A stretch of DNA of 64,000 bases from Acidimicrobiia bacterium (GCA_040902765.1 JBBDWO010000007.1:20113-84112); one strand, 5' to 3'. Positions 554-58,419 are shown, counted from the stretch's first letter. Notes: a model not told the origin generated them from the letters alone. Numbers and translations: made by a program.

Positions 554-574
554 GGAGGGGCGAGGGGCGATCGC
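554..574. repeat. heptamer array (GCGAGGG-type, 3 units)
   Basis: GGGAGGG GCGAGGG GCGATCG, directly after the lnt TAG stop. Confidence 0.6.
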
Positions 575-578
575 TACG

Positions 579-750
579 TGGGCCTCGCGACGCGTCTGGC
601 CTCCCCCTCCGTCATCGGCCTACGGCCTCTGCCACCTCCCCCTGCGGGGGAGGAGAGTCGGGGGGTGCGGTTCGCAACTCTCTCCCCCCGTAGGGGGGGT
701 ACCGCCGAAGGCGGGGAGGGGGGAGGGCGAACACTGCGTGGGCCTCGCCG
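579..750 (+). repeat. G/C-rich multi-hairpin MITE-like element, full copy (modules U1+U2)
   Basis: CCTCGCGACGCGTCTGGCCTCCCCCTCC terminus, hairpins CCTCCCCC-TGC-GGGGGAGG, CCCCCC-GTA-GGGGGG and CCGCC-GAA-GGCGG, then GGGGAGGGGGGAGGGCG. It is bounded by the direct repeat CGTGGGCCTCGC (577-588 and 737-748). Confidence 0.8.
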
Positions 751-760
751 AGGTCTGTCC

Positions 761-788
761 AAATACCAAATACCAAGTACCAGGTACC
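761..788. repeat. heptamer array (AAATACC, 4 units)
   Basis: AAATACC AAATACC AAGTACC AGGTACC. Confidence 0.8.
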
Positions 789-820
789 GCCTCTGGCCAG
801 CCAGAGCCACAAGCTCTGCC

Positions 821-1783
821 CTACGGGCCAACCCTTGTCCCCGCGGTCCCCGCGATGGCCCGATCAATCCCCTCCACACTGGTGATCAGCGCACCACGGC
901 CGGTGGCCGACACATACGCGATACACGCTTCGATCTTGGGGCCCATCGAACCCTCCGGGAACTCGCCGGCGTCGAGGTATTGGTGCGCCTCGTCGACGGT
1001 GAGGCTGAGCAGGGGGCGTTGCTCCGCGGTCCCGAAGCCGAGATAGGCGGCATCCACCTCGGTGAGGATCACGAAACCGCGAGCGTCGATGGAGGTAGCG
1101 ATGAGGGCGCCGGTGCGGTCCTTGTCGATGACGGCCTCTACGCCGTAGGTGGTGCCGTTGGGGCCGTGTGCCACCGGGATGCCACCGCCGCCTCCGGCGA
1201 TGACGATGGCCCCGCTGCGGGCGGCATCGAGGATCGCTCCGATCCCGATGACCTCGAGCGGCGGCGGTGACGGCACGACTCGTCGGACTCCCCTGCCGGG
1301 AACCTCGACCGTCTCCCAACCACGGGCGGCGGCCAGCGTTGCGGCCTTCTCAATCGGGTAGAAGGGTCCGACCGGCTTTGTGGGTCTGGTCATCGCCGGG
1401 TTCTCCGGGTCGACCACCACCTGGGTGACGATCGGTGCGACCGCCACTTCCCTGCCCGCGCCGCGCATCGCGTCCCCGATCGAGCGGGCGAGCAGGTACC
1501 CGATGCTGCCCTGTGTCTCCGCGACCAGCACGTCGAGCGGGTCTACCGGTACCTCGTGGTGGGCTGCTTCGGCACGCAGCAGCCCGCGACCCACCTGGGG
1601 CCCGTTGCCGTGCACCAGCACCACGCCCGTGTCTTCGGGGAGGAGAACGGTGAGGGCGGCGGCGAAGGCGGCGGCGTTGCGCTCGGCCCGGCCCGGGTCA
1701 CCGGCGTCCGGGAGTAGGGCGTTGCCGCCGAACGCCACCACAAGCGGCCCGCCGTGGGACGCCCACAGACGGCGGTCAGGCAT
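821..1783 (-). CDS. arcC: carbamate kinase
   Basis: 320-aa ORF with an ATG start. It has amino-acid-kinase-fold motifs typical of carbamate kinase: VVAFGGNALL, VLVHGNGPQVG, IAGGGGGIPV, VIDKD. Confidence 0.85.
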   Translation of the reverse strand: MPDRRLWASHGGPLVVAFGGNALLPDAGDPGRAERNAAAFAAALTVLLPEDTGVVLVHGNGPQVGRGLLRAEAAHHEVPVDPLDVLVAETQGSIGYLLARSIGDAMRGAGREVAVAPIVTQVVVDPENPAMTRPTKPVGPFYPIEKAATLAAARGWETVEVPGRGVRRVVPSPPPLEVIGIGAILDAARSGAIVIAGGGGGIPVAHGPNGTTYGVEAVIDKDRTGALIATSIDARGFVILTEVDAAYLGFGTAEQRPLLSLTVDEAHQYLDAGEFPEGSMGPKIEACIAYVSATGRGALITSVEGIDRAIAGTAGTRVGP

Positions 1784-1786
1784 CGA

Positions 1787-3064
1787 TCAGCGCGACTCGT
1801 AGGCGGTGAGGGCGGCGTCGATGGCGTCGATGCCCTGGTCTAGTTCCTCACCGGTCACGCACAGCGGCGGGATGAACCGGATGACGTTGGCGTTGGGCCC
1901 GCAGTCCAGGATGAGCAGTCGGCTCTCGTCGCGGCAGTGCTGGGCGAGGAACGGGAAGGCCTTGGGGTCGGGAGTGTTGCCCTCGGTCACCAGTTCGACG
2001 CCGATCATCAGGCCGGTGCCGCGCACGTCGCCGATGGTGGGATGCTGCGACTTCAGGTCGGCGAACCGGGCGAAGGCCTGCTCGGACAACGCCCCGGTAC
2101 CCGGGATCATGGTGCCGAGCACGTCGACCGTCGCCGCCGCGGCCGCACAGGACACCGCGTTCCCGCCGAAGGTGGTGCCGTGTGAGCCGGGAGTCCAGGC
2201 GTCGAGGATCTCGGCGCTGGCACCGACCGCCGACAGGGGGAGGCCGTTGGCGATCGCCTTGCCCATGAGAAGGACATCCGGGTCGACGTCATAGTGATCC
2301 GAGGCAAACCACTTCGCGGTGCGGCCGAACCCGGTCTGGATCTCGTCGAAGATGAGCAGGATGCCGTGTTCGTCGGCGAGGTTGCGCAACCGCTGCAGGA
2401 ACCGTGCTGGGGCTGGGTAGTAACCGCCCTCGCCCTGGATCGGTTCCACCAGGAAGGCTGCTACCTCACCTGGCGTCACTTCATGGGCGAACTTCATGTC
2501 GAGTTCGCGGATGGCGTAGTCGGTGGCCTCGTCCTCGCTCATGCCCCATCCGAACGGGTGCGGGAACGGGGTGACGAACACTGACGGGAGCAGCGGGTGA
2601 TAACCCTGGCGGTACTTCGCCTTTGACGTGGTGTAGGTGACCGAGCCCATGGTGCGTCCGTGGAAGGCGCCCCGGAACACCACGACGCCCTGGCGGCCGG
2701 TGGTCTTGCGGGCCAGCTTGATCGACGCCTCCACGGCCTCGGCGCCCGAGTTCATGAAGAAGAGCTTCTCGATCGGGTCGGGTGTCACCGACACCACCTT
2801 TTCGGCGGCGGTGACCAGCGAGTCGTAGCGGAAGACTCCGCCGGCGTGCCACAGGCGGTCCAGCTGGTCGCGAGCCGCGGCGAGGATGTCGGGGTGGTTG
2901 TGTCCGGCGTTGATCACCGAGATGCCGGTGGCGAAGTCCAGGTATCGCTCGCCTTCCACATCGGTAACCCAGGATCCCTGGCCGGAGACGATCTCGAGAT
3001 CCGAATCCCAGGTGATGACCGGTGCGTAGACCTTCTCGTGGCGCTCAACGATGGAGTTGCTCAT
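1787..3064 (-). CDS. class III PLP-dependent aminotransferase (GabT/ArgD-like)
   Basis: Motifs FMNSGAEAVE and FDEIQTGFGRTAK, with a length of about 425 aa. I prefer the ATG at 3064 to the upstream TTG at 3073 used by the ORF track. Confidence 0.85.
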   Translation of the reverse strand: MSNSIVERHEKVYAPVITWDSDLEIVSGQGSWVTDVEGERYLDFATGISVINAGHNHPDILAAARDQLDRLWHAGGVFRYDSLVTAAEKVVSVTPDPIEKLFFMNSGAEAVEASIKLARKTTGRQGVVVFRGAFHGRTMGSVTYTTSKAKYRQGYHPLLPSVFVTPFPHPFGWGMSEDEATDYAIRELDMKFAHEVTPGEVAAFLVEPIQGEGGYYPAPARFLQRLRNLADEHGILLIFDEIQTGFGRTAKWFASDHYDVDPDVLLMGKAIANGLPLSAVGASAEILDAWTPGSHGTTFGGNAVSCAAAAATVDVLGTMIPGTGALSEQAFARFADLKSQHPTIGDVRGTGLMIGVELVTEGNTPDPKAFPFLAQHCRDESRLLILDCGPNANVIRFIPPLCVTGEELDQGIDAIDAALTAYESR

Positions 3065-3075
3065 GGAGCGCAAGA

Positions 3076-3111
3076 GTAACGAGTAGGAAGTAGCGAGTAG
3101 CGAGTAGCGAG
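3076..3111. repeat. heptamer array (GTAGCGA, the inverse of GCTACTC; 5 units)
   Basis: GTAACGA GTAGGAA GTAGCGA GTAGCGA GTAGCGA. Confidence 0.85.
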
Positions 3112-3120
3112 ACCGAGGTG

Positions 3121-3310
3121 AGCCTCGCGACGCGTCTGGCCTCCCCCTCCGTCAGCGACCTCCGGTCGCTGCCACCTCCCCCTGCGGGGGAGGAGACCGC
3201 GCGATCAGGTCCTTTTGCGGTTCCTCCCCCCGAAGGGGGGAGTACCTGACGGCGTAGCCGTCAGGGGAGGGGGGAGGGCGATCGCTACGCAGGCATCGCT
3301 GCGCGTCTGG
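3121..3310 (+). repeat. MITE-like element, full copy (U1+U2)
   Basis: Same architecture as 579-750. Inner hairpins here are CAGCGACC-TCC-GGTCGCTG (3153-3171) and CCTGACGGC-GTA-GCCGTCAGG (3245-3265). Confidence 0.8.
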
Positions 3311-3345
3311 CCATGAGCCATGAGCTATCAGCTATTAGCTGAGTT
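3311..3345. repeat. heptamer array (CCATGAG grading to CTATTAG, 5 units)
   Basis: CCATGAG CCATGAG CTATCAG CTATTAG CTGAGTT. It contains the TAA stop (and a following TAG) of the thioesterase-like gene. Confidence 0.8.
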
Positions 3346-4027
3346 CAACCCATACCTGGCTGGACCAGGCGAGGAGCTCGCCGTCCGCTGTCGCCAGGGC
3401 GGTGCCGGCGAGGGCCTTGCGGCCTGAGCGGCTGACCGGCCAGCCGTAGGAGATCGTGGGCTCACCGATGGCGGGTGCCCGGGCCACATGGGCAGCCATC
3501 CGACCCAGCACGACCGGCTTGTCGGTCTCGGTGCGCATCGCCGTCCAGGCGCCCGGGCAGTCGATGGCGGCCCACACGATCGGGATGGTGACCGCTCCGT
3601 CCCGGTTCGGCAGCGAGGGGTCGGGGGTCCACGGTGCCGCGACGAGGTCGGTGCCGGGTATCGGACCACTGAAGATCCGCAGGTTGTCGGTGCGTCCCGG
3701 TCCGCAGGTGAAGCATCCCGGGAACTCGTGGTGGACGAGACCGAGGTAGCGCGTTGCCGCGTCCTCGGCCTGGGCTAGGGTCGGTGGCGTCGGCGGCTCC
3801 GGGGGCACTCCGGTCGGTGTCGCCTGAGCGATGAGGCGGTCGCCCTCCATGACGGCCCACCCATCGTCGGCCGGGACGATCTGTAACTCGGTGTCGAGGG
3901 ACGGGGGTTGGCGCAGGGTCACCTCGACCGGCTCGCCGATGGCCTCGGCGACGGCGCCGCACGAGTAGCCACCGTTGCCCGACCCGGGCGGTCCGAAGAA
4001 GCGAGCGGGGATCACGATCGTCGTCAT
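3335..4027 (-). CDS. hotdog-fold thioesterase-like protein
   Basis: 230-aa ORF with an ATG start. The N-terminal GSGNGGYSCGA and the overall pattern resemble PaaI-type or acyl-CoA thioesterase-like hotdog proteins. The family assignment is only approximate. Confidence 0.5.
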   Translation of the reverse strand: MTTIVIPARFFGPPGSGNGGYSCGAVAEAIGEPVEVTLRQPPSLDTELQIVPADDGWAVMEGDRLIAQATPTGVPPEPPTPPTLAQAEDAATRYLGLVHHEFPGCFTCGPGRTDNLRIFSGPIPGTDLVAAPWTPDPSLPNRDGAVTIPIVWAAIDCPGAWTAMRTETDKPVVLGRMAAHVARAPAIGEPTISYGWPVSRSGRKALAGTALATADGELLAWSSQVWVELS

Positions 4028-7902: not shown

Positions 7903-7940
7903 AGAAAGATCGTACCGGCCGAAGGCCGGTCCGATCCGGC

Positions 7941-7970
7941 GCGATTCGCGGTTCGCGGTTCGCGATTCGC
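7941..7970. repeat. heptamer array (GCGRTTC, 4 units)
   Basis: GCGATTC GCGGTTC GCGGTTC GCGATTC GC. It is inverted relative to the 7984-8013 array. Confidence 0.85.
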
Positions 7971-7983
7971 CAGAACGCCTCTT

Positions 7984-8013
7984 GCGAATAGCGAATAGTG
8001 AATAGCGAATAGC
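7984..8013. repeat. heptamer array (GCGAATA, 4 units)
   Basis: GCGAATA GCGAATA GTGAATA GCGAATA GC. Confidence 0.85.
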
Positions 8014-8029
8014 GCCTAGGGTTTTCCCT

Positions 8030-8869: not shown

Positions 8870-8950
8870 GGGCCTCGCGACGCGTCAGCCCTCCCTCTCC
8901 GTCATCGGCCGGCGGCCGATGCCACTTCCCCCTTCAGGGGAGGGGACCGT
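8870..8950 (+). repeat. MITE-like element, U1 half copy
   Basis: GGCCTCGCGACGCGTCAGCCCTCCCTCTCC terminus, inner hairpin CATCGGCC-GGC-GGCCGATG (8903-8921), then CCACTTCCCCCTTCAGGGGAGGGG. Confidence 0.75.
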
Positions 8951-11005: not shown

Positions 11006-11100
11006 TTCCCCTCTCTCCCCCCGTAGGGGGGAGTACCCGACGGCGGAGCCGTCAGGGGAGGGGGGAGGGCGAACGCTACGCAGCCCCCGCGACGCGGCCG
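11006..11100 (+). repeat. MITE-like element, U2 half copy
   Basis: CTCTCCCCCC-GTA-GGGGGGAG hairpin, CCCGACGGC-GGA-GCCGTCAGG hairpin, GGGGAGGGGGGAGGGCG, and a CGCGACGCG end. Confidence 0.75.
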
Positions 11101-11128
11101 CTCTTGGTTCTTGGCTCTTGGTTCTCCG
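11101..11128. repeat. heptamer array (YTCTTGG, 4 units)
   Basis: CTCTTGG TTCTTGG CTCTTGG TTCTCCG. Confidence 0.75.
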
Positions 11129-14601: not shown

Positions 14602-14630
14602 TAACGGAAGCGCCGAAGGCGCTTCCGTTA
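14602..14630 (-). other. perfect 13-bp stem-loop in the purA upstream region
   Basis: TAACGGAAGCGCC-GAA-GGCGCTTCCGTTA. Its 3' arm runs into the GTTATTC heptamer array. It lies 39 nt upstream of the purA ATG. Confidence 0.4.
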
Positions 14631-14650
14631 TTCGTTATTCGTTATTCGCT
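14627..14650. repeat. heptamer array (GTTATTC, 3 units)
   Basis: GTTATTC x3 followed by GCT. It is inverted relative to the 14705-14734 array. Confidence 0.8.
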
Positions 14651-14704
14651 AGGTCTCGCATACAGCAGTACCTATCAGATCAACGCCTCAGCAGGAACCG
14701 CCTT

Positions 14705-14734
14705 GCGAATAGCGAATAGCGAATTGCGAATCGC
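14705..14734. repeat. heptamer array (GCGAATA-type, 4 units)
   Basis: GCGAATA GCGAATA GCGAATT GCGAATC GC. Confidence 0.85.
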
Positions 14735-16615: not shown

Positions 16616-16643
16616 GAGAGGGGCGAGGGGCGAGGGGCGACTG
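16616..16643. repeat. heptamer array (GCGAGGG, 4 units)
   Basis: GAGAGGG GCGAGGG GCGAGGG GCGACTG. It fills most of the 45-nt gap between two genes. Confidence 0.75.
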
Positions 16644-35299: not shown

Positions 35300-35309
35300 G
35301 GGGGTTGCG

Positions 35310-38059: not shown

Positions 38060-38073
38060 AGCCGCCCCCGACC

Positions 38074-44903: not shown

Positions 44904-46325
44904 ATGTTGGAATATGACGTCGTCGTGATCGGCGCCGGTCCGGTTGGCGAGAACGCCGCCGCGGCTGCGGCACGAGAAGGTCTGAGAACCGTCATCGTCG
45001 AGCGTGACCTCGTCGGCGGGGAGTGCTCGTACTGGGCGTGCATGCCGTCCAAGGCACTGTTGCGCCCCGGCGAGGCGGTTGCCGCGGCGCGGCGGGTTCC
45101 CGGGGCCGCGGAGGCGGTCGCCGGATCCATCGATGTCGACGCTGCCCTTTCAAGGCGCGACTCCCTGGCGTCGGATTGGGACGATTCGGGGCAGGTTCGG
45201 TGGCTGGAGGGCGAGGGTATCGATCTCGTGCGCGGCCACGGGCGAATCGCCGGGGAGCGGGCCGTCGAAGTGGAGCACACAGACGGGTCGTCGACCTCGT
45301 TGCGGGCAGGACGAGCCGTGGTGGTCGCCACCGGCACCGGCGCTTCGTTCCCGCCGATCCCCGGCCTGGATCAGATCAGCACATGGGACAACCGCGATGC
45401 CACCACGGCCAAGGACGTGCCCCGACGCCTCGCCATCCTCGGCGGGGGTGCCGTAGGAGTGGAACTCGGACAGGCATGGCGGGCGCTCGGTGCCGAGGAG
45501 GTCACCATCATCGAACTCTTCGACCATCTCCTCAGCCGTGAAGAACCGTTCGCTGGCAAGGAACTCGCCGAGTCATTGCGAGGCATGGGCATTCGTGTGC
45601 TGGTGGGCGCCAAGACGTCACGGGTCGATCGTCAGGGCGGCGACGGTCCGGTCGTACTAACCGTCGAGGTGGATGGCGAGGTCGAAACGATCACCGCCGA
45701 CGAACTCCTGGTGGCTACCGGCCGTCGCGCGTTGACCGAGGACCTTGGACTGGAGACGATCGGGCTCGATCCCGGCGGCTTCTTGGAAGTAGCCGACGAC
45801 TTGCGGGTCAAGGCGGTGCCAGACGGTTGGCTGTACGCCGTCGGCGACGTAAACGGCCGGAGCCTGCTCACTCATACCGGCAAGTATCAGGGGAGGCTCG
45901 TCGGTCAAGTGATCGCTGGCCATCAGGTGACGGCCTGGGCGGATACGGCGACACAGCCACGGGTCGTCTTCACCGATCCCCAGGTGGCCGCGGTCGGACT
46001 CCTCGAACAGCAGGCGCGAGACCAAGGACTCGATGTCCGGGTGGTCCGCTACGACATCGGCAAGACTGCCGGGGCCGGTGTACTGGGGCGCGGATACCAC
46101 GGCACGTGCCAGTTGCTGATCGACGCAGCCCGCGACCTGATCGTGGGAGCCACCTTCGTGGGTCCGCACGTGGGGGAGATGATCCATGCCGCGACCGTCG
46201 CCATCGTCGGTGAGGTGCCGTTGTCTCGGCTATGGCATGCCGTGCCATCCTTCCCTACGCTCAGCGAGGTCTGGCTCAGACTGTTGGAGACCTATCGGGA
46301 CGAGTATGGAGAGGAGTACCGCTGA
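44904..46325 (+). CDS. FAD-dependent pyridine nucleotide-disulfide oxidoreductase (class I, lipoamide dehydrogenase/mycothione reductase-like)
   Basis: The ATG at 44904 follows AAGGAG. VVVIGAGPVGE FAD fold, redox disulfide GGECSYWACMPSK, and a second Rossmann fold LGGGAVGVE. There is no C-terminal Cys pair, so it is not MerA. Confidence 0.85.
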   Translation: MLEYDVVVIGAGPVGENAAAAAAREGLRTVIVERDLVGGECSYWACMPSKALLRPGEAVAAARRVPGAAEAVAGSIDVDAALSRRDSLASDWDDSGQVRWLEGEGIDLVRGHGRIAGERAVEVEHTDGSSTSLRAGRAVVVATGTGASFPPIPGLDQISTWDNRDATTAKDVPRRLAILGGGAVGVELGQAWRALGAEEVTIIELFDHLLSREEPFAGKELAESLRGMGIRVLVGAKTSRVDRQGGDGPVVLTVEVDGEVETITADELLVATGRRALTEDLGLETIGLDPGGFLEVADDLRVKAVPDGWLYAVGDVNGRSLLTHTGKYQGRLVGQVIAGHQVTAWADTATQPRVVFTDPQVAAVGLLEQQARDQGLDVRVVRYDIGKTAGAGVLGRGYHGTCQLLIDAARDLIVGATFVGPHVGEMIHAATVAIVGEVPLSRLWHAVPSFPTLSEVWLRLLETYRDEYGEEYR

Positions 46326-46452
46326 CGCTGATGCACCCCGCTGAGGTTGCACTGGCGCGCTAGGTGCGGTCGGCGCTCATGCGGCACGTGCTTCCCTACG
46401 ACATGGCTGCCGCGGCGGTAGCGCTGGCGTTCCTCTTTGCCGGCGCGCGTCG

Positions 46453-47244
46453 TCAAGCCACCGTACAGCCGAGCGCCCAGTCGTAGGGAAGGAACTCGAC
46501 GCGGGGACGCGTAGCGACGACCCAGGCGGCAACCTCGGCTTCCAGCCATGGGATCAGGGCCAGGGCCACCGCCCTGGGGCGGGCGGGAAGCATCGTGGGC
46601 ATCTTCGACGGTCGTGTGAAGTCGCCACCGAACCAACGGAAGATGCGTGACAGGCGGAGCACACCGGAATCGGGATCGGCGCTGGCGCCGCCCTCACGGA
46701 GAAAGCGCTGCATCTGGTCGTCGAGTTGATGGTTGAGTGCTGGCCCCGCATAGGGTTCGGAGCGCAGCGTCGGACATGACACCGCGCCGCACATGAGCGC
46801 AGCATGGACGCGGGGGTCACTGAATCGACGAATCTTGGCGTGCTCGATCGCGTCGAGGGACAGCGTCTCGTCGGAGATGGTGAGGACGGGGCGCTGAAAC
46901 CCACCGGGGACCCGTAACACCGAGGTCGTATCGCTTCGACCCGCTTCGACCGCAAGACCGATGGCGGCCGCGTTGTAGAGGTTGATCCAAAAGGCGAGGG
47001 CGCCGTCTTTGCCGAGTCGGTCTGGCTCGACCTCGGTGGCGTGCTGAATGAAGGCGGCGACGGACCCTGGATCCACGGCCCGGATCCCGCGTTCGGCGAT
47101 CGTGGCGAGGATCGGTCCTAGCGCTGCTTGATCGACGTGCCCTGACCCGGAAGGTCGGGGAGCACGGACGCTGCGAAGTGACTGGCCGATCGACCAGAGG
47201 ACCGCGAGGGGGTTGGGCGATGGCGATTGGGTCACCCCATGCAC
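46453..47244 (-). CDS. DUF547 domain protein
   Basis: 263 aa. DUF547 hallmark AFWINLYNAA, then HAALMCGAVSCP. Confidence 0.75.
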   Translation of the reverse strand: MHGVTQSPSPNPLAVLWSIGQSLRSVRAPRPSGSGHVDQAALGPILATIAERGIRAVDPGSVAAFIQHATEVEPDRLGKDGALAFWINLYNAAAIGLAVEAGRSDTTSVLRVPGGFQRPVLTISDETLSLDAIEHAKIRRFSDPRVHAALMCGAVSCPTLRSEPYAGPALNHQLDDQMQRFLREGGASADPDSGVLRLSRIFRWFGGDFTRPSKMPTMLPARPRAVALALIPWLEAEVAAWVVATRPRVEFLPYDWALGCTVA

Positions 47245-47284
47245 AACCGCCGGGCGGTGTCGGCTGTTCCCGTTGTGTGAACCG

Positions 47285-48042
47285 TCAGGCTGGAGCGGGC
47301 CGGATACGCACGGACACGATCGGGCCCGGACCGAATGGATCGGATACCTCTAGGCCCACGGATCGGTAGGCCGAAGCTGGCACCGAGATGTCGGCCAAGT
47401 AGATGTCCCCGGTAATGGCCGCTGGCGCAGCCATCAGCCCGGTCTTCGGGAGTCCAAGCGTCACCGTCACCTCGGCGTGGATGCACGGACTCCTTGCTTC
47501 GCCGGTCGTAGCGTCAGGCCGCTGGGGATGTCGACCGAGATGATCGGACTGGCGGCGCTGTTGGCCCACTCGATGAGATCGGCTGCTCGTTGGCGGGGGT
47601 CGCCCGATAGGGAGTATCCGATGATCCCATCGATGATCACGTCGCCCGGTGTCGGTGCGTCCTCAATGGGTATGCCGAGCCGGTTTGCGATCGTCAACTG
47701 CAAGGTGGGGACGGGTCCCATTCGATCTGCGGAGGTTGCCGTCACGGCAACGCCAACTCCCCTGTTGACCAGGTGTCGCGCCGCCACCAGTGCGCCACCG
47801 CCGTTGCCCCCGGTTCCCGCCAGGACGGTGACTCGTTGGGGGTTCCACAGCGTCATGGCGAGGCGTGCGACGGCAGCACCGGCATGCTCCATCATCATCG
47901 GCAACGCGACGCCGAGGTCCTCGATCATCCGCCGGTCGATGTCGGCCATCTGGGCAGCGGTCACCGCGGGGAGGCCGGCCGAGGCGGGTGGAGGCAGCAT
48001 CGACATCGTCCGTAAGTGTCGCATGGATGGGACGACCCTCAT
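47285..48042 (-). pseudogene. nnrE: NAD(P)H-hydrate epimerase (YjeF N-terminal domain), interrupted by a -1 frameshift
   Basis: ORF 47467..48387 carries LAGTGGNGGGALVAARHL and VDIPSGL and then stops. The expected continuation, DATTGE...VTVTLGLPKTGL, is in ORF 47285..47569. One G appears to be missing in GGCCTG(G)ACGCT near 47514-47518. Confidence 0.65.
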
Positions 48043-48044
48043 GC

Positions 48045-48075
48045 TTGACCTTCGAGTGACTCGAAGGTGTACGGT
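48045..48075 (+). promoter_or_regulatory. MerR-type promoter/operator with a 19-bp spacer
   Basis: TTGACC (48045-48050), a 19-nt spacer, then TACGGT (48070-48075). The spacer holds the perfect inverted repeat ACCTTCGAG-TGA-CTCGAAGGT (48048-48068). The merR-like ATG lies 7 nt downstream of the -10, so the transcript would be leaderless or nearly so. Confidence 0.65.
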
Positions 48076-48081
48076 CCGCTG

Positions 48082-48477
48082 ATGCGGATAGGAGCGTTGG
48101 CCCGCGTTACCGGTCTCGATCGGTCGACGATGAGGTTCTATGAGCAAGTCGGTGTATTCCCGTCGCCGCCGCGTCTCGACAACGGCTATCGCGACTATGA
48201 CGAGCGCCTGGTGGAACTCGGACGATTCGTACGGGCGGCCCGCTCGCTGGGATTCACGCTCCACGACATCCGGGAAGTCGTACGGCTGCGGGAGTCGGGT
48301 ACCGCGCCGTGCGCGCAAGTGCGCCGGGTCATCGACGCCCGCATCGCCGGTGTCGGGCAGCAGATCGCGGACCTGCTGCGAGCCCATGAGGAGCTCATAG
48401 CGCTACGCGACGAAGCGGCGTCGTTGGACGATCGGTGGGAGGAGGCATCGTGCGTTTGCCATCTGGTGACCGGGTGA
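48082..48477 (+). CDS. MerR family metal-responsive transcriptional regulator
   Basis: 131 aa from the ATG at 48082. N-terminal HTH (MRIGALARVTGLDRSTMRFYEQ). Cys77 plus a C-terminal CVC (Cys124/126) give the three-Cys pattern of heavy-metal MerR/ZntR/CadR-type sensors. Confidence 0.8.
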   Translation: MRIGALARVTGLDRSTMRFYEQVGVFPSPPRLDNGYRDYDERLVELGRFVRAARSLGFTLHDIREVVRLRESGTAPCAQVRRVIDARIAGVGQQIADLLRAHEELIALRDEAASLDDRWEEASCVCHLVTG

Positions 48478-48767
48478 CCATTGAGGTCCGGTACTTCGAT
48501 TCGTGCCCCAACTGGAAGCGGACGCGCCGCCTGATCGAGGGGATCACTGGTGAAGCACCTCGGCTGCTTCTGGTGGAGACACTCCAGCAAGCCGAGGAGC
48601 TCGACTTTGCCGGATCCCCGACCGTGTTGGTCAACGGGGTCGATCCGTGGTCGGACCAAGCGGCTGCTGCTTCGATGTCGTGTCGCATCTATCGAACGCC
48701 TGACGGTTCGCTCGTCGGCGGACCCACCGAGGCGATGCTCCGCGATGCCCTGAAACCCGACGCCTGA
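48435..48767 (+). CDS. small thioredoxin-fold protein (single-Cys SCPNW motif)
   Basis: 110-aa ORF overlapping the merR-like 3' end. YFDSCPNW and GSPTVLVNG resemble glutaredoxin/thioredoxin-like proteins found in actinobacterial metal-resistance loci. The start is uncertain (48435 or GTG 48450). Confidence 0.5.
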   Translation: MGGGIVRLPSGDRVTIEVRYFDSCPNWKRTRRLIEGITGEAPRLLLVETLQQAEELDFAGSPTVLVNGVDPWSDQAAAASMSCRIYRTPDGSLVGGPTEAMLRDALKPDA

Positions 48768-48788
48768 CGGTCGCGTATCCTCGGACCC

Positions 48789-49469
48789 GTGATCGAGCCG
48801 CAGTTCATTCCGTACCGCCCGACGCGGCCGCCGATCGAGGAGGTTGCGGCTCGAGCGCACGACCTGTACCAGGCTCTAGATACGCGCCGCAGCGTTCGCA
48901 TGTTCTCCCCGGACCCGGTGCCGCGGGCGATCATCGAAGATGTCGTTCGCGCCGCGTCCACGGCTCCGTCGGGGGCACATCGCCAGCCATGGCGGTTCGT
49001 GATCGTCGGTGATCCTGGTACCAAGCGTAAGATCCGCGCCGCCGCTGAGGCCGAGGAGGCCGAGAACTATGGCGGAAGGCTGCCCGAGGATTGGCTGGAG
49101 GCGCTGGCCCCACTCGGTACCGACGAACACAAGCCGTATCTGGAGATCGCACCGTGGATCGTCGTTCTGTTCGAGGAGCGCTACGGCATCAACCCTGATG
49201 GCTCTCACCGAAAGAACTTCTACGTGAAGGAGAGCGTTGGGATCGCCGCCGGGATGTTCGTGGCAGCCGTTCACCTGTCGGGCCTGGCGACCCTACCTCA
49301 CACCCCGAGTCCGATGGCGTTCCTGTCGAAGACGCTGGAGCGGCCCGAGAACGAGCGACCATTTGCGCTCTTTCCCGTCGGGTATCCGGCCGACGATTGT
49401 GTGGTACCCGACCTCGTTCGTAAACCTCTCGCAGAGGTGGCGGTCGAGTTCCCGCCTCCTGTGGGGTAG
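48789..49469 (+). CDS. nitroreductase family protein (iodotyrosine deiodinase/BluB-like subgroup)
   Basis: 226 aa with a GTG start. RRSVRMF, APSGAHRQPWRF and the C-terminal LPHTPSP block. Confidence 0.85.
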   Translation: MIEPQFIPYRPTRPPIEEVAARAHDLYQALDTRRSVRMFSPDPVPRAIIEDVVRAASTAPSGAHRQPWRFVIVGDPGTKRKIRAAAEAEEAENYGGRLPEDWLEALAPLGTDEHKPYLEIAPWIVVLFEERYGINPDGSHRKNFYVKESVGIAAGMFVAAVHLSGLATLPHTPSPMAFLSKTLERPENERPFALFPVGYPADDCVVPDLVRKPLAEVAVEFPPPVG

Positions 49470-49571
49470 GGCGTCACCGCGCGAGAGAGTGTCGGCCGCA
49501 CGACATTGCGTCGCCCGCCGATGGGTCCAGGGCGTTGAGATGGGTATGACTACACCAGCGAGGAGAAACCG

Positions 49572-49988
49572 ATGTCGTACCTGATACCGATCAGCGAACA
49601 GCCCGGCTCTGTCGACGCCATGTCGCATGCCCGGCGCTTCGATAGGCTGTTTAGGGTGGCCGCGGTCGCCAACGCCATGCTCGAGGAGGTGCGCGACGCC
49701 CCGTGTGACCCACCGGGCTGCGGGCGCCTGCGCGACTCCTATCTGCGCACCGTGGACGAACTGCGCGATGTGCTCGGCGGAGACCTCAGGGATGAGCTGG
49801 GCCGCCGGGTTGTCGCATTCGGACGAGGGGCCCCCACCCCCTCTGAGCTGCGAGTAGCGCACGCCGAGCTTGTGGGGTGGCTGGACGGCCTCCTCGGGGG
49901 TCTTGCCGCCGCTGTCGACACCATTGAGGCACCGTCGGTGCGGGACGAAGAGGACCGCGCCGACATCATGCCAGGGCAATACCTGTGA
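49572..49988 (+). CDS. bpa: bacterial proteasome activator Bpa/PafE
   Basis: 138 aa. It aligns by eye to M. tuberculosis Rv3780 (LEEVR.AP.D, RLRD, ELR.A.A.LVGWL.GL) and ends with the proteasome-docking GQYL motif. Confidence 0.85.
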   Translation: MSYLIPISEQPGSVDAMSHARRFDRLFRVAAVANAMLEEVRDAPCDPPGCGRLRDSYLRTVDELRDVLGGDLRDELGRRVVAFGRGAPTPSELRVAHAELVGWLDGLLGGLAAAVDTIEAPSVRDEEDRADIMPGQYL

Positions 49989-50051
49989 ACACCATCGAAT
50001 ACCGGGTCGGCCCGTCGAGACCGACCGGCCAGTCCTGGGCCGAGGACTGAC

Positions 50052-50672
50052 ATGGACATAGCCGTGAACCTCGTGGAGTCCTATCTCCGGCTCAATGGCT
50101 ATCTGACGCTGACCGAGGTCGAGGTTCAGCATCCTGGAGCGAGCGGCCTTTACGAGTCGATCACCGACATCGACGTGGTGGCAATCAGGTTCCCCGGGGA
50201 CATGTTCGCTGCCGACCTGCATGGTGAGGCGGACAGTCGGATGCTTCTCATCGAGGACGATGGACTGTATCTCGGACCAGAGATGGTCGACGTGATCATC
50301 GGCGAGGTCAAGGAGGGACCCGCTCGGCTCAACGCTGCGGTTCGGCGGCACGAGGTTCTTCATATGGTTCTTCGCCGCTTGGATTGGATCTACGAGTCGG
50401 GGGTTGATCCAGTCCTCGCCGATCTCCAGCGCCGCGGGTTGTCCGAGGCTATGGGGAGGTCGGGAGCGGTCATCCGTACCCGACTGGTTGCCTTCGGTGC
50501 CGACCCCGGCGAACCCACGCTCCATCTGGTGCCGCTGTCACATGTCTTGGAGCGAATGGTCGAATTCATGGAACGTTTCGACGACGTACTGCGTCCCACC
50601 CAGTTCAAAGAGCCCGCCCCCGCACTACTGCGGCTCCTCGTGAAATGCGGTTTTCGTCTCACGAATCGATAG
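50052..50672 (+). CDS. hypothetical protein with a PD-(D/E)XK nuclease-like motif
   Basis: 206 aa with an ATG start. VESYLRLNGY, then D-I-D-VVAI, then VIIGEVKEG. This is a D...ExK arrangement typical of restriction-endonuclease-fold proteins. Confidence 0.55.
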   Translation: MDIAVNLVESYLRLNGYLTLTEVEVQHPGASGLYESITDIDVVAIRFPGDMFAADLHGEADSRMLLIEDDGLYLGPEMVDVIIGEVKEGPARLNAAVRRHEVLHMVLRRLDWIYESGVDPVLADLQRRGLSEAMGRSGAVIRTRLVAFGADPGEPTLHLVPLSHVLERMVEFMERFDDVLRPTQFKEPAPALLRLLVKCGFRLTNR

Positions 50673-50780
50673 AGAGGGCGCTACGAGGTGCCGCGATCGT
50701 CTACCCGACTGTCGGCGTGCTGACAGATCGGGAGTCGGGGGGAGTGGGGTGTTTCACGGGTGACACTAGAGGAGGTCCCT

Positions 50781-50930
50781 ATGGCCGTTCAGGCCATGCC
50801 CGCACTCGCCGGACTCATTCCTACTGTTGTGATGTCGACGATGATGGCCGTCGCTCGTCGTATCGGTTCCGCCTACTCGAGGTTGAGCGGACAGGCTGGC
50901 GTCTCGACTCGGCCTATGGCGGGCGTGTGA
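50781..50930 (+). CDS. candidate small membrane protein (49 aa), not in the ORF track
   Basis: The ATG is preceded by AGGAGG at a 6-nt spacing. Translation: MAVQAMPALAGLIPTVVMSTMMAVARRIGSAYSRLSGQAGVSTRPMAGV. It has one hydrophobic helix followed by a basic stretch. No homology was recognised. Confidence 0.3.
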   Translation: MAVQAMPALAGLIPTVVMSTMMAVARRIGSAYSRLSGQAGVSTRPMAGV

Positions 50931-51013
50931 ACAGTCTCCCTGACCGCACCGGTGGGCGTACCGGCGTGGAGGCTGCCGTGAGCACTGGACAGGACGCGGC
51001 ATATGAGCCAAGT

Positions 51014-51048
51014 CTTGCTGCTGGCTACTTGCCGCTTCCTACTTCCGC
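51014..51048. repeat. decayed heptamer array (CTTSCYR, 5 units) at the hspR 3' end
   Basis: CTTGCTG CTGGCTA CTTGCCG CTTCCTA CTTCCGC. It has a 7-nt periodicity of CTT and contains the hspR TAG stop. Confidence 0.5.
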
Positions 51049-51407
51049 CTCACATCCGGCAGGTTGCCGCTGGTCGGTGGCACCTCTCCTCGGATCCTCG
51101 CCTCGGCCTCGCCCAGGAGGCGTCTCAAGCGCGTCACCTGATGCTGCAGGCGGTCGGCATCATCGCGGAGTTCGAGGATCATCCGCACACCCTCGAGGTT
51201 GACGCCGGCGGCGGTGAGCTCCTGGATGAGCTGGAGGCGCTCCACGTCCTCCTGTGAGTAGCGACGGGTCCCGCCGGGGGTGCGGTACGGACTGAGGAGG
51301 CCGCGCCGCTCGTAGATCCTGAGGGTCTGTGGGTGCATGCCGACGATCTCTGCAGCCACCGAGATGATGTAGACGGCGTCTCGTTGTCGGTCGGTCATCG
51401 CGCTCAC
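51039..51407 (-). CDS. hspR: heat-shock transcriptional repressor HspR (MerR family)
   Basis: 122 aa. ISVAAEIVGMHPQTLRIYERRGLL.P.R..GG.RRYS signature. It is the last gene of the dnaK operon. The TAG stop sits in a decayed heptamer array. Confidence 0.87.
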   Translation of the reverse strand: MSAMTDRQRDAVYIISVAAEIVGMHPQTLRIYERRGLLSPYRTPGGTRRYSQEDVERLQLIQELTAAGVNLEGVRMILELRDDADRLQHQVTRLRRLLGEAEARIRGEVPPTSGNLPDVRRK

Positions 51408-56312: not shown

Positions 56313-56313
56313 C

Positions 56314-56341
56314 AGCCAGTGGCGAGGGGCGAGTGGCCAGG
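56314..56341. repeat. heptamer array (GGCGAGK, about 4 units)
   Basis: AGCCAGT GGCGAGG GGCGAGT GGCCAGG, directly after the ligC TAG stop. Confidence 0.7.
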
Positions 56342-56342
56342 G

Positions 56343-56550
56343 TCGCGTCATGGGGTCCACGTAGGGTTTGCCCTCCCCCCTCCCCGCCGCTCGCTTCGCT
56401 CCCGGCGGTACTCCCCCCTTCGGGGGGAGGGACCGCAAGAGAGAGGTGATGACCGGGAGTGCCGCCTCTGTTTGCGGTCCCCTCCCCTGAAGGGGGAGGT
56501 GGCAGCGGCCTCTGGCCGCTGACGGAGGGGGAGGGCTGACGCGTCGCGGG
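56343..56550 (-). repeat. MITE-like element, full copy in inverted orientation (left of DUF559)
   Basis: The reverse complement of the U2+U1 architecture. GCCCTCCCCCCTCCCC, CTCCCCCC-TTC-GGGGGGAG, linking stem GGGACCGCA...TGCGGTCCC, CCTCCCC-TGAA-GGGGGAGG, CAGCGGCC-TCT-GGCCGCTG (56503-56521), and a GGAGGGGGAGGGCTGACGCGTCGCG end. Confidence 0.8.
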
Positions 56551-56589
56551 GGGCTGGCAACTCGTTGTCAGACGAGACATTCTCTACGG

Positions 56590-56958
56590 ATGGCAAGGCC
56601 CCCTCGTGATCCGCTCGCCGCTGAGCGTGCCCGAACACTGCGGCGTAGGCAGACCAATGTCGAGGCTCGTCTCTGGGTCCGTCTTAGGGGCGGTCAGTTG
56701 GGCGTCCGATTCCGACGGCAGGTGCCGATGGGTCAGTGGATCGTTGACTTCGCCTGTTTCGCCCCCAAGCTCGTCATCGAAGTGGACGACGGGTCTCACG
56801 ATGGCCGGGACGAGTCGGAACGCACTCGGTACCTGGAGTCCTTGGGTTTTGCAGTGGCTCGTTTCGACAACAGGGACATCTTCGAGATCGACGTGGCGGT
56901 CCACGCCCTCGAAGTGGCGATAGCGGCACTGCGGAAGGGTGAACCGCTCCCTTGGTGA
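56590..56958 (+). CDS. DUF559 endonuclease domain protein (Vsr-like PD-(D/E)XK)
   Basis: 122 aa. LRRRQT..E..LW..LR, FRRQ..., YIVDF-like WIVDFAC, LVIEVDG-like LVIEVDDGSH, and G..V.RF.N. Confidence 0.85.
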   Translation: MARPPRDPLAAERARTLRRRQTNVEARLWVRLRGGQLGVRFRRQVPMGQWIVDFACFAPKLVIEVDDGSHDGRDESERTRYLESLGFAVARFDNRDIFEIDVAVHALEVAIAALRKGEPLPW

Positions 56959-56965
56959 TCGGTCC

Positions 56966-57333
56966 CTCTCGCGGGCCGACGCGTCGCGGGGTCTCCGTAG
57001 TGTTTGCCCTCCCCCCTCCCCGCCGCTCGCTTCGCTCGCGGCGGTACTCCCCCCTTCGGGGGGAGGGACCGCAGGAGAGAGGTGATGACCGGAAGTCCTG
57101 CCTCTGTTTGCGGTCCCCTCCCCTGAAGGGGGAGGTGGCAGCGGCCTCTGGCCGCTGACGGAGGGGGAGGGCTTCCTGCGGTCCCCTCCCCTGAAGGGGG
57201 AGGTGGCAGCGGCCTTGCCGCTGACGGAGGGGGAGGGCTTCCTGCAGTCCTTTCTGCGGTTCCCTCCCCTGAAGGGGGAGGTGGCAGCGGCCTCTGGCCG
57301 CTGACGGAGGGGGAGGGCTGACGCGTCGCGAGG
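56966..57333 (-). repeat. MITE-like element, inverted orientation, with the U1 module triplicated (right of DUF559)
   Basis: 56998-57172 is a near-direct repeat of 56361-56535. The U1 module recurs at 57111-57172, 57179-57238 and 57257-57318, separated by 6 nt and 18 nt. Confidence 0.8.
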
Positions 57334-57342
57334 CCCAATGAC

Positions 57343-57384
57343 TCCTGGTCCCTCGCTACTCGCTACTCGCTACTCGCTACTTCC
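57343..57384. repeat. heptamer array (TACTCGC, 6 units)
   Basis: TCCTGGT CCCTCGC TACTCGC TACTCGC TACTCGC TACTTCC. It is the inverse of the 56314-56341 array (AGCGAGT vs GGCGAGT) and contains the primase-polymerase TAG stop. Confidence 0.85.
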
Positions 57385-58363
57385 TCTTCTTGCTGGGCTG
57401 GACCCGACGCGGCTCTCCGGGTTGCTTTCGGTAGTGGGGGGGCCAGGGGGCGTCGCCCAAGCCGCGTTCTTCGTCGGCGGCCACCATGTCGAGGAGCGGG
57501 GTCAGGTCGCCCGGGTCGTCGTCGATGCCATCGGTGAGGTCCCCGACCTCGGCGAACCGGTCCTTGAAGCCCATCAGGTCGAGTGCCTGAGGGTCGATGC
57601 TGTCGAGTTCGTCCCAGGTGAAGGGGACCGAGACCAGTCCTGTCTGGCGAATGCTGTACGCCGAGGCGATCGTCTTGTCGCGGGCGTTCTGGTTGTAGTC
57701 GACGAACACGCCGCTCCGCTCCTCCTTCCACCATTCGGTGGTGGCGAGGTCCTCGGTGCGGCGTTCCAGTTCCCGACCGACCGTCAGAACAGCCCGACGC
57801 GCCTGGAAGTAGTCCCAGTCGGGCCGGATGCGCGCGTAGATGTGGATGCCGCGTGACCCGGACGTCTTCGGCCAGCCGACCAGGCCCTTCTCATCGAGGA
57901 GCGCCCGCGTGGCCCTGGCGACCTCCCGGCAATGGTCGAAGCCGAAGCCCTCGGTGGGGTCGAGATCGAAGCGCAGTTCGTCCGGATGGTCCAGGTCGTC
58001 GACTCGGGCCGTCCACGGGTTGAGGTCGATGACACCGAGTTGGACCTGCTCGACGATGTCGGCGACATCCTCGACATACGGCATCACTCCGGGCTGCGCC
58101 GACGGGAACTCGACCGGCGCCGAGTGAGTGATCGTCGACGGAGCCCGCTTGTTGAAGAAGAAGTCACCGCCGACACCATCCGGCCAGCGCTTCAGGGAGG
58201 TGGGCCGCCGGTCCACGCCTCGTACCGCGCCGTCGGCGCACATCAGGTAGTGCTCGGCCACGTCGAGTTTCGTCCAGCCGTGGTCGGGGAAGAGCACCTT
58301 GTCGGGACTGCTGACCCGCACGGCCCGCCCAGCCGCCTCCACCGTCGTTTCACTCTTGGCCAC
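57377..58363 (-). CDS. LigD-like primase-polymerase domain protein (Prim-PolC-like)
   Basis: 328 aa with a GTG start. SSPDKVLFP, LKRWPDGV.G..FF.KR, KTSGSRGIHIY and DYNQNARDKT motifs of NHEJ/BER archaeo-eukaryotic primase-type polymerases. The TAG stop lies in a heptamer array. Confidence 0.85.
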   Translation of the reverse strand: MAKSETTVEAAGRAVRVSSPDKVLFPDHGWTKLDVAEHYLMCADGAVRGVDRRPTSLKRWPDGVGGDFFFNKRAPSTITHSAPVEFPSAQPGVMPYVEDVADIVEQVQLGVIDLNPWTARVDDLDHPDELRFDLDPTEGFGFDHCREVARATRALLDEKGLVGWPKTSGSRGIHIYARIRPDWDYFQARRAVLTVGRELERRTEDLATTEWWKEERSGVFVDYNQNARDKTIASAYSIRQTGLVSVPFTWDELDSIDPQALDLMGFKDRFAEVGDLTDGIDDDPGDLTPLLDMVAADEERGLGDAPWPPHYRKQPGEPRRVQPSKKRK

Positions 58364-58371
58364 GCTCTGAG

Positions 58372-58419
58372 GCTATCGCTACTCGCTACTCGCTACTCGC
58401 TACTCGTTACTTGCTACGG
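58372..58419. repeat. heptamer array (GCTACTC, 7 units) filling a divergent intergenic region
   Basis: GCTATC GCTACTC x4 GTTACTT GCTACGG. It occupies 48 of the 64 nt between the primase-polymerase start and the hdeD-like start. Confidence 0.9.

Follow-up and report, generated by a model that had tools for sequence, protein, structure and literature searches.

The 64,000-nucleotide stretch of DNA from an Acidimicrobiia bacterium studied here (GCA_040902765.1, JBBDWO010000007.1:20113-84112; hereafter the window) carries, in the spacers between its genes, numerous arrays of head-to-tail seven-nucleotide units. These heptamer arrays make up a class of intergenic repeat that is lineage-specific and quickly turned over, and in kind they match the short tandemly repeated repetitive (STRR) sequences of cyanobacteria and the GGGAATC repeats of Xanthomonas. 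We favour, with moderate confidence, the more specific reading that the arrays serve mainly as the two arms of small foldback (stem-loop) insertions in spacers between genes, resembling the intervening sequences (IVSs) of ribosomal RNA. This reading draws on the potential of the arms to pair, on the presence between one pair of arms of a gene of the 23S rRNA intervening-sequence protein (IVP) family, on a bracket of fixed polarity around that gene family in many other bacteria, on a conserved unit core accompanied by variable filler, and on replacement and copy-number change between close strains. The inverted pairing of the arrays and the enclosure of an IVP gene by one pair were absent from an earlier note on this DNA and are added here.

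Heptamer arrays of the window

Period-7 arrays were called with Tandem Repeats Finder and with a separate lag-7 self-match scan of the whole window. Tandem Repeats Finder returned 25 period-7 rows, seven of which do not count as arrays, being the doublet GGGGAGG GGGGAGG (or its complement) that belongs to a GC-rich hairpin element. The two approaches together give 17 arrays with at least three copies and two to three short or degenerate ones (2.3 copies at 555-570, a degenerate array at 35300-35333 and a remnant near 40720). Among clean arrays the highest copy numbers are 6.4-6.7 (31849-31893, 33511-33556 and 58372-58417), and the degenerate array at 35005-35065 reaches 8.4. The earlier note, which counted at least 21 arrays of 3-13 units, was therefore right about the phenomenon and somewhat too high in both number and length. 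The unit families that it listed (GCTACTC, GCTATTC, GCTACCG, GCTACCA, GTTATTC and GCGATTC) are all present, along with a GAGGGGC group and the units CCAAATA and TCTTGGT.

Every array is intergenic or overlaps a gene end by at most 19 nt; the arrays sit outside open reading frames (ORFs) or at their 3′ ends, and the adjoining genes are housekeeping genes. Many arrays begin or finish 0-15 nt from a start or stop codon, and the stop codons of lgt (gene end 31875), of a LigD-type primase-polymerase gene (57377) and of the IVP gene (33103) lie inside arrays. A stringent lag-p scan gave 13 period-7 arrays, 12 of which fall within the 12.9% of the window that a codon-usage gene map leaves as intergenic, in keeping with the earlier placement of the arrays between genes and at gene boundaries; the same scan found no arrays of periods 8-15 and two each of periods 5 and 6, in coding DNA. 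The G+C content is 65-72% across the entire window. When the 43 intergenic segments were subjected to 200 dinucleotide-preserving shuffles, a mean of 0.02 and a maximum of one period-7 array resulted, against 14 observed, with no enrichment of any other period, and the expected excess over shuffled sequence of the same composition is confirmed for the window. Array density is 0.234/kb in the window and 0.021/kb, at the same threshold, in a control set of 80 loci (1.37 Mb) from diverse bacteria, fetched via ClpB. The arrays thus share two defining properties of STRRs, namely head-to-tail 7-nt units in at least three copies and dispersal over many non-coding sites far beyond chance; they lack the canonical cyanobacterial units and host, the units of the window being GCTACTC-like and GAGGGGC-like.

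Inverted pairs and their foldbacks

All spacers of the window were read; isolated arrays are uncommon, and eight spacers contain a pair. Six of these pairs are inverted and of related units (3074/3310, 7940/7984, 14626/14705, 33084/33511, 35005/35300 and 56321/57352), one is direct (31770/31849) and one is unrelated (555/759). The arms enclose 13 nt (7971-7983), 56 nt (14649-14704), GC-rich hairpin composites, or a 120-amino-acid ORF (33103-33465, minus strand). The inverted pairs are made up as follows.

3074-3111: array of 5.4 copies of GAGTAGC, 9 nt from the start codon of an aminotransferase gene (1787-3064, minus strand), with TAG in all three plus-strand frames
3310-3340: array of 4.4 copies of GCCATGA/GCTATCA, inverted relative to 3074-3111, overlapping the stop of gene 3335-4027 (minus strand)
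7940-8014: foldback without an ORF; 4.4 copies of GCGATTC/GCGGTTC (7940-7970) and, 13 nt away, 4.4 inverted copies of GCGAATA (7984-8014)
14626-14731: foldback without an ORF; 3.3 copies of CGTTATT (14626-14648) and 3.9 inverted copies of GCGAATA (14705-14731) around a 56-nt loop, between a yjbQ-like gene and purA
33084-33110: arm on the downstream side of the IVP gene, reading (CGGTAGC)n along the gene strand and including the IVP stop codon
33103-33465, minus strand: gene for a 120-amino-acid four-helix-bundle protein of the 23S rRNA intervening-sequence family (IVP; S23p, Avd-like)
33511-33556: arm on the upstream side of the IVP gene, reading (TACCAGC)n along the gene strand; the SPFH stop is 1 nt away
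35005-35065: degenerate array of 8.4 copies of AGGGGCG, followed by a composite resembling a miniature inverted-repeat transposable element (MITE)
35300-35333: degenerate array, inverted relative to 35005-35065, at the right end of spacer 35005-35333
56321-56342: array of 3.1 copies of GGCGAGG, 8 nt past a stop codon and bordering a composite on the left
57352-57381: array of 4.3 copies of CTCGCTA, holding the stop of the LigD-type primase-polymerase gene (57377-58363, minus strand)

Two of the pairs enclose no ORF. Folded as RNA, the first (7940-8014) consists of 6-bp helices split by single mismatches and reaches -46.7 kcal/mol (z = -5.6), while the second (14626-14731) gives z = -6.3 to -6.6; over both, z ranges from -4.4 to -6.6, with single mismatches between 6-bp helices throughout.

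The IVP cassette

The pair at 33084/33511 encloses the one IVP gene. Its product matches Pfam PF05635 (E = 5.8e-36) and NCBIfam TIGR02436, 'four helix bundle protein' (E = 7e-34), and is homologous to XCC0516 of Xanthomonas campestris, a pentamer of solved structure (PDB 2GSC, E = 1e-20). The match to Avd, the accessory protein of diversity-generating retroelements, is weak, and no reverse transcriptase was found among the identified neighbours of the gene. The G+C content at third codon positions is 0.72 in the IVP gene and ~0.85-0.9 in host genes.

In the 485-nt RNA of the cassette (33078-33562, minus strand), the two arrays are predicted to pair as a closing stem of ~33 bp, in both the minimum-free-energy and the centroid structure. 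The cassette thus has, in its predicted fold, the complementary termini by which an IVS is closed in a stem. It is located between the SPFH gene (33558-34490) and a CMD-family gene and not in a helix of 23S rRNA; an Rfam scan and family searches found no rRNA in the window. Searches of ~30 of the ~65 window ORFs against family libraries revealed no transposase or reverse transcriptase near the cassette, and among these ORFs neither a Y1 transposase nor a transposase of the kind associated with repetitive extragenic palindromes (REP-associated tyrosine transposase, RAYT).

Arrays around the IVP gene family in other bacteria

Period-7 arrays recur around IVP genes far from this lineage. We assembled 80 metagenome loci with a profile of the IVP family and an independent set of 51 loci from IMG/VR, 131 in all. 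In the metagenome loci, array density is 2.70/kb up to 150 bp from the IVP gene and 0.21/kb beyond, with no excess near the gene for periods 5, 6, 8, 9 and 10; the IMG/VR loci give 2.69/kb and 0.17/kb. At least one array adjoins the gene in 44 of the 80 metagenome loci and in 26 of the 51 from IMG/VR. Two loci illustrate the arrangement: one organism has an IVP homologue between sdhA and sdhB, another has one between two ABC permease genes, and each homologue is flanked on both sides by inverted heptamer arrays (CAGCGAT... / GCTGATC... and AAGCNNG... / CTCGCTT...). The distance from array to array around the gene was 358-514 nt in the loci examined. One locus (L184) holds seven arrays of one unit, including one pair around the IVP gene, and in this locus and another (L215) a single unit is used throughout.

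The bracket has a fixed polarity. Upstream arrays read TCAG rather than CTGA in a ratio of 16:2 and downstream arrays read CTGA in a ratio of 26:0 (Fisher p = 4e-10), and a unit of the form T-CAGC-NN is common to two thirds of the arrays that flank IVP genes. Within arrays, the five core positions vary by 0.3-4.5% and the two filler positions (NN) by 21-38%. While three of the core positions were set by the anchoring of the units, variability within arrays was not; the contrast between core and filler points to selection or recognition of the core. The suggestion of the earlier note that the arrays might be recognised with 7-bp phasing would fit such a conserved core and variable positions at 7-nt phase. 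On the gene strand, 25 of 34 downstream arrays stop every reading frame, where 33% is expected; upstream arrays carry three-frame stops on the opposite strand in 20 of 31. The duplex energy of 130-nt flanks has a median z of -2.2, with 28 of 69 loci below -3, and is a weak indicator, inflated even for shuffled sequence.

In PLSDB, all nine plasmids with a recognisable IVP homologue are cyanobacterial. On pNPUN01 of Nostoc punctiforme, the four-helix-bundle gene is preceded by eight copies of TCAGGAG/TCAGAAT and followed by the inverse array, so that a member of the group in which STRRs were defined has the same gene family bracketed by the same kind of arrays, and the likening of the window's arrays to STRRs is upheld. 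The flanks of the Calothrix homologue are weak.

Several further observations were made at these and the control loci. A second family of cassette genes between other array pairs was sought and rejected, as the ORFs found there are mostly ordinary host or phage genes. On plasmid pPg_01 of Pseudanabaena galeata (L176, 45868-47021), a four-helix-bundle gene between cas6 and cas4 is preceded by 17 copies of AAAAGCT and followed by a run of AAAAGCC, direct and not inverted. At one locus (L142, 3014-3059), an array of TCAACGC/TCACCAC lies between two ORFs that jointly resemble one UDP-GlcNAc 2-epimerase-like gene, and it may split or bridge a coding sequence. Paired arrays with no PF05635 gene within 20 kb occur at three control loci, from Omnitrophota (L021, 13065-13128), Anaerolineae (L024, 224-497) and Cyanobacteriota (L077, 81-173); the first and the third are inverted, the first with z = -6.5, and the pairs of the second are direct.

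Turnover between close strains

The ClpB of the window is at best 67% identical to entries of a species-level genome collection, where the best matches are Acidimicrobiia metagenome-assembled genomes; neither this protein nor the IVP protein has an exact match on record. The SPFH protein has relatives of 99, 98, 96 and 95% identity in metagenomes and of 86-88% in metagenome-assembled genomes named Acidimicrobiia or Actinobacteria, which bears out the actinobacterial affiliation first surmised from the sequence. Six contigs syntenic with the window represent related strains: L170-L173, with an SPFH protein 99% identical, and L168 and L169, at 95%.

The spacer between the AMIN-domain gene and nfeD differs from strain to strain. 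In the window it holds GGGGCGA-type arrays around a hairpin composite (35005-35333); in L171 it holds (GCGATTC)4, 90 nt and (GCGAATA)3, which is the unit pair found in the window at 7940-8014; in L170 it holds (GTGAAGC)4, and in L168 GGGAGCC-like units. Conservation is limited to the last ~35 nt before the nfeD start. The spacer between the SPFH and CMD genes carries the IVP cassette in the window, 13 nt and a truncated CMD gene in L170 and L172, another sequence in L171, and a methyltransferase gene in place of the cassette in L168 and L169. The possibility that the L168 methyltransferase is the window's own gene, relocated between spacers, was rejected, since the two are paralogues of only 53% identity. 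The array after lgt keeps the unit GAGTAGC in all strains and differs in copy number, from 4-6 in the window to 11 in L170 and at least 9 in L172, whose contig ends in the array.

These comparisons bear on two expectations of the earlier note in opposite ways. Its insertion hot spots are borne out by orthologous spacers with differing inserts between strains whose proteins are 95-99% identical, and the check that it proposed, a comparison of orthologous spacers, did uncover copy-number polymorphism (GAGTAGC, 4-6 against 11 or at least 9). Its homogenisation of one ancestral unit accounts poorly for the data, as strains with a 99% identical SPFH protein bear unrelated units at the same spacer; whole segments are therefore replaced and do not drift. 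A more distant relative, the complete Acidimicrobiia genome CP129495.1 (L177; SPFH 88%, equal G+C content), is free of arrays over 21 kb of syntenic DNA, and its yjbQ-purA spacer lacks the hairpin that the window carries at 14626-14731. From the strain differences and this array-free relative we conclude that the repeats are of recent origin and restricted to a sub-lineage, and that both replacement and copy-number change contribute to their turnover. As they break assemblies and vary among 99% identical strains, array spacers can serve as strain markers and are also a source of mis-annotated gene ends.

Such variability is what would be expected if the arrays had no function and no link to any gene, arising by neutral slippage that favours 7-nt units and piling up where selection is weak. 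Copy number does vary among 99% identical strains (4-6 against 11), the arrays are limited to non-coding DNA, their sequences are not kept between close strains, and a slippage hypothesis for a general excess of heptamers in prokaryotes is cited by Rehm et al. (PMC4692102). Slippage alone would not be expected to leave a core at 0.3-4.5% variability beside filler at 21-38% within the same arrays, nor to produce inverted pairing and a fixed polarity around one gene family (p = 4e-10), and a relative of equal G+C content at 88% identity without arrays, together with a ten-fold lower frequency in the control loci, also speaks against it. We consider it unlikely as a full account.

Turnover also bears on the idea that the arrays act in cis, as binding sites of a regulator of transcription or translation (a role proposed for TAACTGA repeats), as contingency loci tuned by copy number, or as REP-like hairpins that terminate transcription or stabilise mRNA. 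This would accommodate the polymorphic copy number, the strong hairpins, and the arrays that lie 8-15 nt before start codons (3074-3111, 11102-11125 and 58372-58417), and the Xanthomonas repeats are transcribed (PMC4692102). However, as many arrays or more lie at 3′ ends or hold stop codons, the units change from locus to locus, the same spacer carries unrelated units or none in 99% identical strains, and no U-tract follows the hairpins of the window. A regulatory role of this kind is in our view improbable as the explanation of the arrays.

Hairpin modules between the arrays

Where the arms of a pair enclose neither a short loop nor the IVP gene, they enclose GC-rich hairpin modules (CCTCCCCCTGCGGGGGAGG, CCGCCGAAGGCGG, GGGGAGGGGGGAGGGC; ends like CTCGCGACGCGTC), which occur about nine times in the window (566-753, 3112-3309, 8870-8950, 11006-11101, 31794-31848, 35095-35299, 38000-38060, 56344-56560 and 56980-57340) and also in a 99% identical strain (L170, 2790-2938). 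Other ends resemble GGCCTCGCGACGCGTC, and the stems are of the form CCTCCCCCT-loop-GGGGGAGG and CCGCC-GAA-GGCGG. Rfam and tRNA scans of the window gave no match, and the modules are therefore not a curated RNA family; they look like a modular element of MITE or REP type nested between heptamer arrays. The composites, and the arrays that border them outside the inverted pairs, are as follows.

555-570: array of 2.3 copies of GAGGGGC, beginning 1 nt past the stop of the upstream gene and bordering a GC-rich hairpin composite on the left
566-753: MITE-like composite of the modules CCTCCCCCTGCGGGGGAGG, CCGCCGAAGGCGG and GGGGAGGGGGGAGGGC, flanked by two heptamer arrays
759-788: array of 4.3 copies of CCAAATA/CCAAGTA, at the right edge of composite 566-753
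3112-3309: MITE-like hairpin composite, 85% identical to the composite at 546-656
11102-11125: array of 3.4 copies of TCTTGGT, preceded by half a hairpin module (together 11006-11125), 15 nt upstream of the SURF1 gene
31770-31798: array of 4.1 copies of GGCTACC, followed by half a hairpin module (31794-31848)
31849-31893: array of 6.4 copies of ACTCGCT, holding the lgt stop codon
35095-35299: MITE-like composite with a 39-nt tandem duplication (35172-35250), between arrays 35005-35065 and 35300-35333
56344-56537 and 56980-57173: two 194-nt MITE-like copies, 95% identical and in direct orientation, flanking the DUF559 gene in region 56344-57340
56590-56958, plus strand: gene for a 122-amino-acid DUF559 protein (Vsr-like endonuclease domain)

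The DUF559 gene may be a second type of small cassette gene. After it come 2.9 tandem 68-nt units (57109-57320), and the region is bordered on the outside by heptamer arrays. The octamer GCGATCGC, the cyanobacterial HIP1 palindrome, has 15 sites in the window (e.g. 567, 3278 and 35490) where 2.5 are expected from base composition alone, an expectation that ignores dinucleotide bias; two of the 15 copies lie within hairpin elements.

The close association of arrays and modules invites the view that the arrays are footprints of transposition, 7-bp target duplications of MITE-like elements stacked by repeated insertion and excision. Arrays do abut hairpin composites at 555/759, 3074/3310, 31770/31849, 35005/35300 and 56321/57352, and the pair at 31770/31849 has the direct orientation that such duplications would show. 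The two sides nevertheless usually carry different units, inverted and not directly duplicated; some arrays are free of MITEs (7940-8014, 14626-14731, 16618-16640 and 58372-58417); and IVP genes have the same arrays on either side in many phyla without these MITEs. We regard such footprints as a distinctly improbable origin. That the arrays are artefacts of a metagenome-assembled genome is very improbable indeed: short repeats can mislead assemblers and contigs of related strains tend to end within arrays (L172), but the same array, (GAGTAGC)n after lgt, occupies one and the same position in ENA and JGI assemblies made independently from 99% identical strains (L170 and L172), the arrays of the window have unique sequence on both sides within one contig, and comparable arrays are found in finished genomes and plasmids, all of which speaks for the arrays being genuine.

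A proposed model of foldback insertion

Our preferred reading, that the arrays are the arms of IVS-like foldback insertions, suggests a model for their persistence between genes. Arrays of related units in opposite orientation enclose a short loop, GC-rich hairpin modules or an IVP gene, an architecture that is that of a classical rRNA intervening sequence, positioned between protein genes rather than within 23S rRNA. We propose that the insert is transcribed together with its neighbours and that its arms pair as a long stem with a mismatch at every seventh position, which RNase III might then cut, an activity demonstrated by experiment only for the rRNA IVSs of Coxiella, Leptospira and Salmonella. 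Most units contain TAG or TGA, and three copies would thereby stop every reading frame that leaves the insert; cleavage of the stem and these three-frame stops could together allow an insert to be tolerated in operons, flush against coding sequence. The length of an array would change by slippage, and whole spacers would be swapped by recombination or re-insertion.

A number of points weigh against this reading. The paired arms differ at one position in every unit, without exception, which weakens the stem, and cleavage of the window's stems by RNase III would be an extrapolation from rRNA IVSs of other phyla. Of about ten array pairs or edges in the window, a single one encloses an IVP gene; the majority of arrays border hairpin modules or nothing, and some occur singly or in direct orientation (31770/31849; 57352 with 58372). 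Around IVP genes elsewhere, arrays are present in 43 of 103 spacers beside the gene and in 7 of 32 other spacers of the same loci, a 2.6-fold difference (p = 0.058), and the arrays are therefore a general spacer feature of such genomes and not private to the cassette; array density in the spacers of IVP-bearing genomes is about ten times that of the control loci. The similarity of IVP proteins tracks that of their flanking units (Spearman -0.32, Mantel p = 5e-4), a correlation confounded by host relatedness. Finally, the S23p protein of Coxiella appears not to be made (PMC4990558).

Further repeats and features of the window

Two arrays lie outside the same-spacer pairs and the hairpin modules.

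16618-16640: array of 3.3 copies of GAGGGGC, occupying a 45-nt spacer
58372-58417: array of 6.7 copies of GCTACTC, filling the spacer of a divergent gene pair, whose starts are 8 and 10 nt away

The second, with the array at 57352-57381, brackets the LigD-type primase-polymerase gene (57377-58363, minus strand) in direct GAGTAGC arrays, one of which supplies the stop codon of the gene. Repeats of other kinds were also noted. A direct repeat of 168 nt and 73% identity (40898-41065 and 41159-41326) spans two small adjacent ORFs (40788-41072 and 41157-41333), which are probably tandem paralogues. A 65-nt stretch of the spacer upstream of a protease gene (36180-36244) is 88% identical to a segment within clpB (39372-39436) and may be a leftover gene fragment. 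The region at ~46000-51200 combines a weak codon-usage signal, a slightly lower G+C content (0.65) and long gaps in the gene map, and may be an island of different origin or a tract of decayed genes.

Comparison with known systems

Tandem heptamers have been known in cyanobacteria since 1990 and were later described in Xanthomonas, Beggiatoaceae, Bacteroidetes and Chloroflexus; we know of no agreed function or origin for them. The earlier note had treated them as a cyanobacterial feature, which is too narrow, as they occur in these groups and in Coxiella as well; its impression that none had been described for high-GC Gram-positive lineages stands, our search having found no published description of heptamer arrays in Actinomycetota. 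Heptamer arrays are thus already known in several phyla, and the window adds the first found for Actinomycetota. The STRRs of Calothrix and of Nostoc/Anabaena share with the window's arrays the tandem 7-nt units, the several unit families per genome and the dispersal in non-coding DNA, and pNPUN01 of Nostoc punctiforme shares a four-helix-bundle gene bracketed by an array and its inverse. The window differs in its host, an acidimicrobiial bacterium, in its GC-rich units with a (G)TAGC core, and in that its arrays are mostly inverted pairs around inserts.

The GGGAATC repeats of Xanthomonas offer a close parallel. X. campestris has 186 intergenic arrays of ~4 units each, 70 of them convergent pairs, with wide variation in length and sequence between close species (Rehm et al. 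2015, PMC4692102); for X. campestris and X. axonopodis, the figures are about 186 arrays and 70-75 convergent (inverted) pairs. The same paper cites a 2007 report of a general over-representation of heptamer repeats in prokaryotes. As in the window, the genome is rich in G+C, the arrays are intergenic and inverted pairs are frequent, and one array lies beside the IVP homologue XCC0516: the supplementary table of PMC4692102 places repeat #15 between bccP (XCC0517) and XCC0516, overlapping the start of XCC0516. The paper draws no connection from the repeats to XCC0516 or to IVS elements. Xanthomonas uses one dominant unit with G-quadruplex potential, whereas the window has many unit variants. 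The TAACTGA arrays in intergenic DNA of Beggiatoaceae, Cyanobacteria and Bacteroidetes (MacGregor 2015, PMC4679880) are likewise heptamers shared by distant phyla, often lie a few nucleotides from start codons and carry three-frame stops, and their CTGA core is that of the arrays downstream of IVP genes. They differ in having been described as direct repeats, for which a part in regulating translation was proposed, and the paper reports no connection with IVS proteins or inverted pairs (PMC4679880). In Chloroflexus, (GATAGRA)n has been noted (Subirana and Messeguer 2019, PMC6749651).

The rRNA IVSs of Coxiella and Leptospira contain the same protein family as the window's cassette, have complementary, stem-forming ends, and are of similar overall size (~430-490 nt). 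In Coxiella burnetii, the 23S rRNA IVS is a selfish element of 428-444 nt with a 28-bp closing stem (Warrier et al. 2016, PMC4990558), in which the S23p ORF is preceded by two to three tandem copies of GACAGAT, the number depending on the strain, and RNase III cuts at the first repeat (PMC4990558); these heptamers upstream of the ORF parallel the arrays of the window. The known elements lie in helix 45 of 23S rRNA and are excised by RNase III, whereas the window's element lies between the SPFH and CMD-family genes. The Coxiella study was the only paper found to join the IVP family with heptamer repeats, in a literature search that was not exhaustive.

It is this recurrent bracket around the IVP family that is the interesting part of our results, for it links repeats of the STRR type to a described selfish element. 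With the bracket present at roughly half of the 131 unrelated loci, as well as in Nostoc, Xanthomonas and Coxiella, the label 'STRR' becomes a set of testable hypotheses, and the questions raised are whether the S23p protein binds the repeat core and whether the stems are RNase III substrates that make insertions in operons harmless. The window supplies a readable context for them, with inverted pairs around inserts, one insert with an IVP gene, and replacement between near-identical strains.

A final likeness is to REP sequences, their paired hairpin forms (REPINs) and the RAYT genes that accompany them. There too, intergenic repeats of one lineage form hairpins, a gene is flanked by inverted copies, and each genome has its own 'dialect'; the IVP gene is likewise flanked by inverted repeats of a family dispersed in the same genome (polarity p = 4e-10; 0.21/kb beyond 150 bp). 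Many of the window's units contain GTAG, the conserved 5′ motif of REP sequences, which we take as a lead only. The systems differ in that RAYTs are Y1 (IS200/IS605-like) transposases, whereas the PF05635 protein of the window is a four-helix bundle of no known catalytic activity, and in that REPs are single palindromes and not tandem heptamers. Because of its resemblance to REP-flanked RAYT genes with scattered REPINs, the IVP protein is a possible partner that recognises the repeat core. We tentatively extend this to the idea, which we hold to be possible if rather doubtful, that IVP/S23p proteins and heptamer arrays form one two-part system across many phyla, comparable to RAYTs with REPINs. 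The pentameric, Avd-like protein would recognise a core of 4-5 nt at 7-nt phase, on DNA or RNA; the IVP gene would travel between a pair of arrays, and pairs without the gene would spread through the spacers of the same genome. If this were true, the cyanobacterial STRRs, the GGGAATC repeats of Xanthomonas, the TAACTGA repeats and the intervening sequences of rRNA would be faces of one element.

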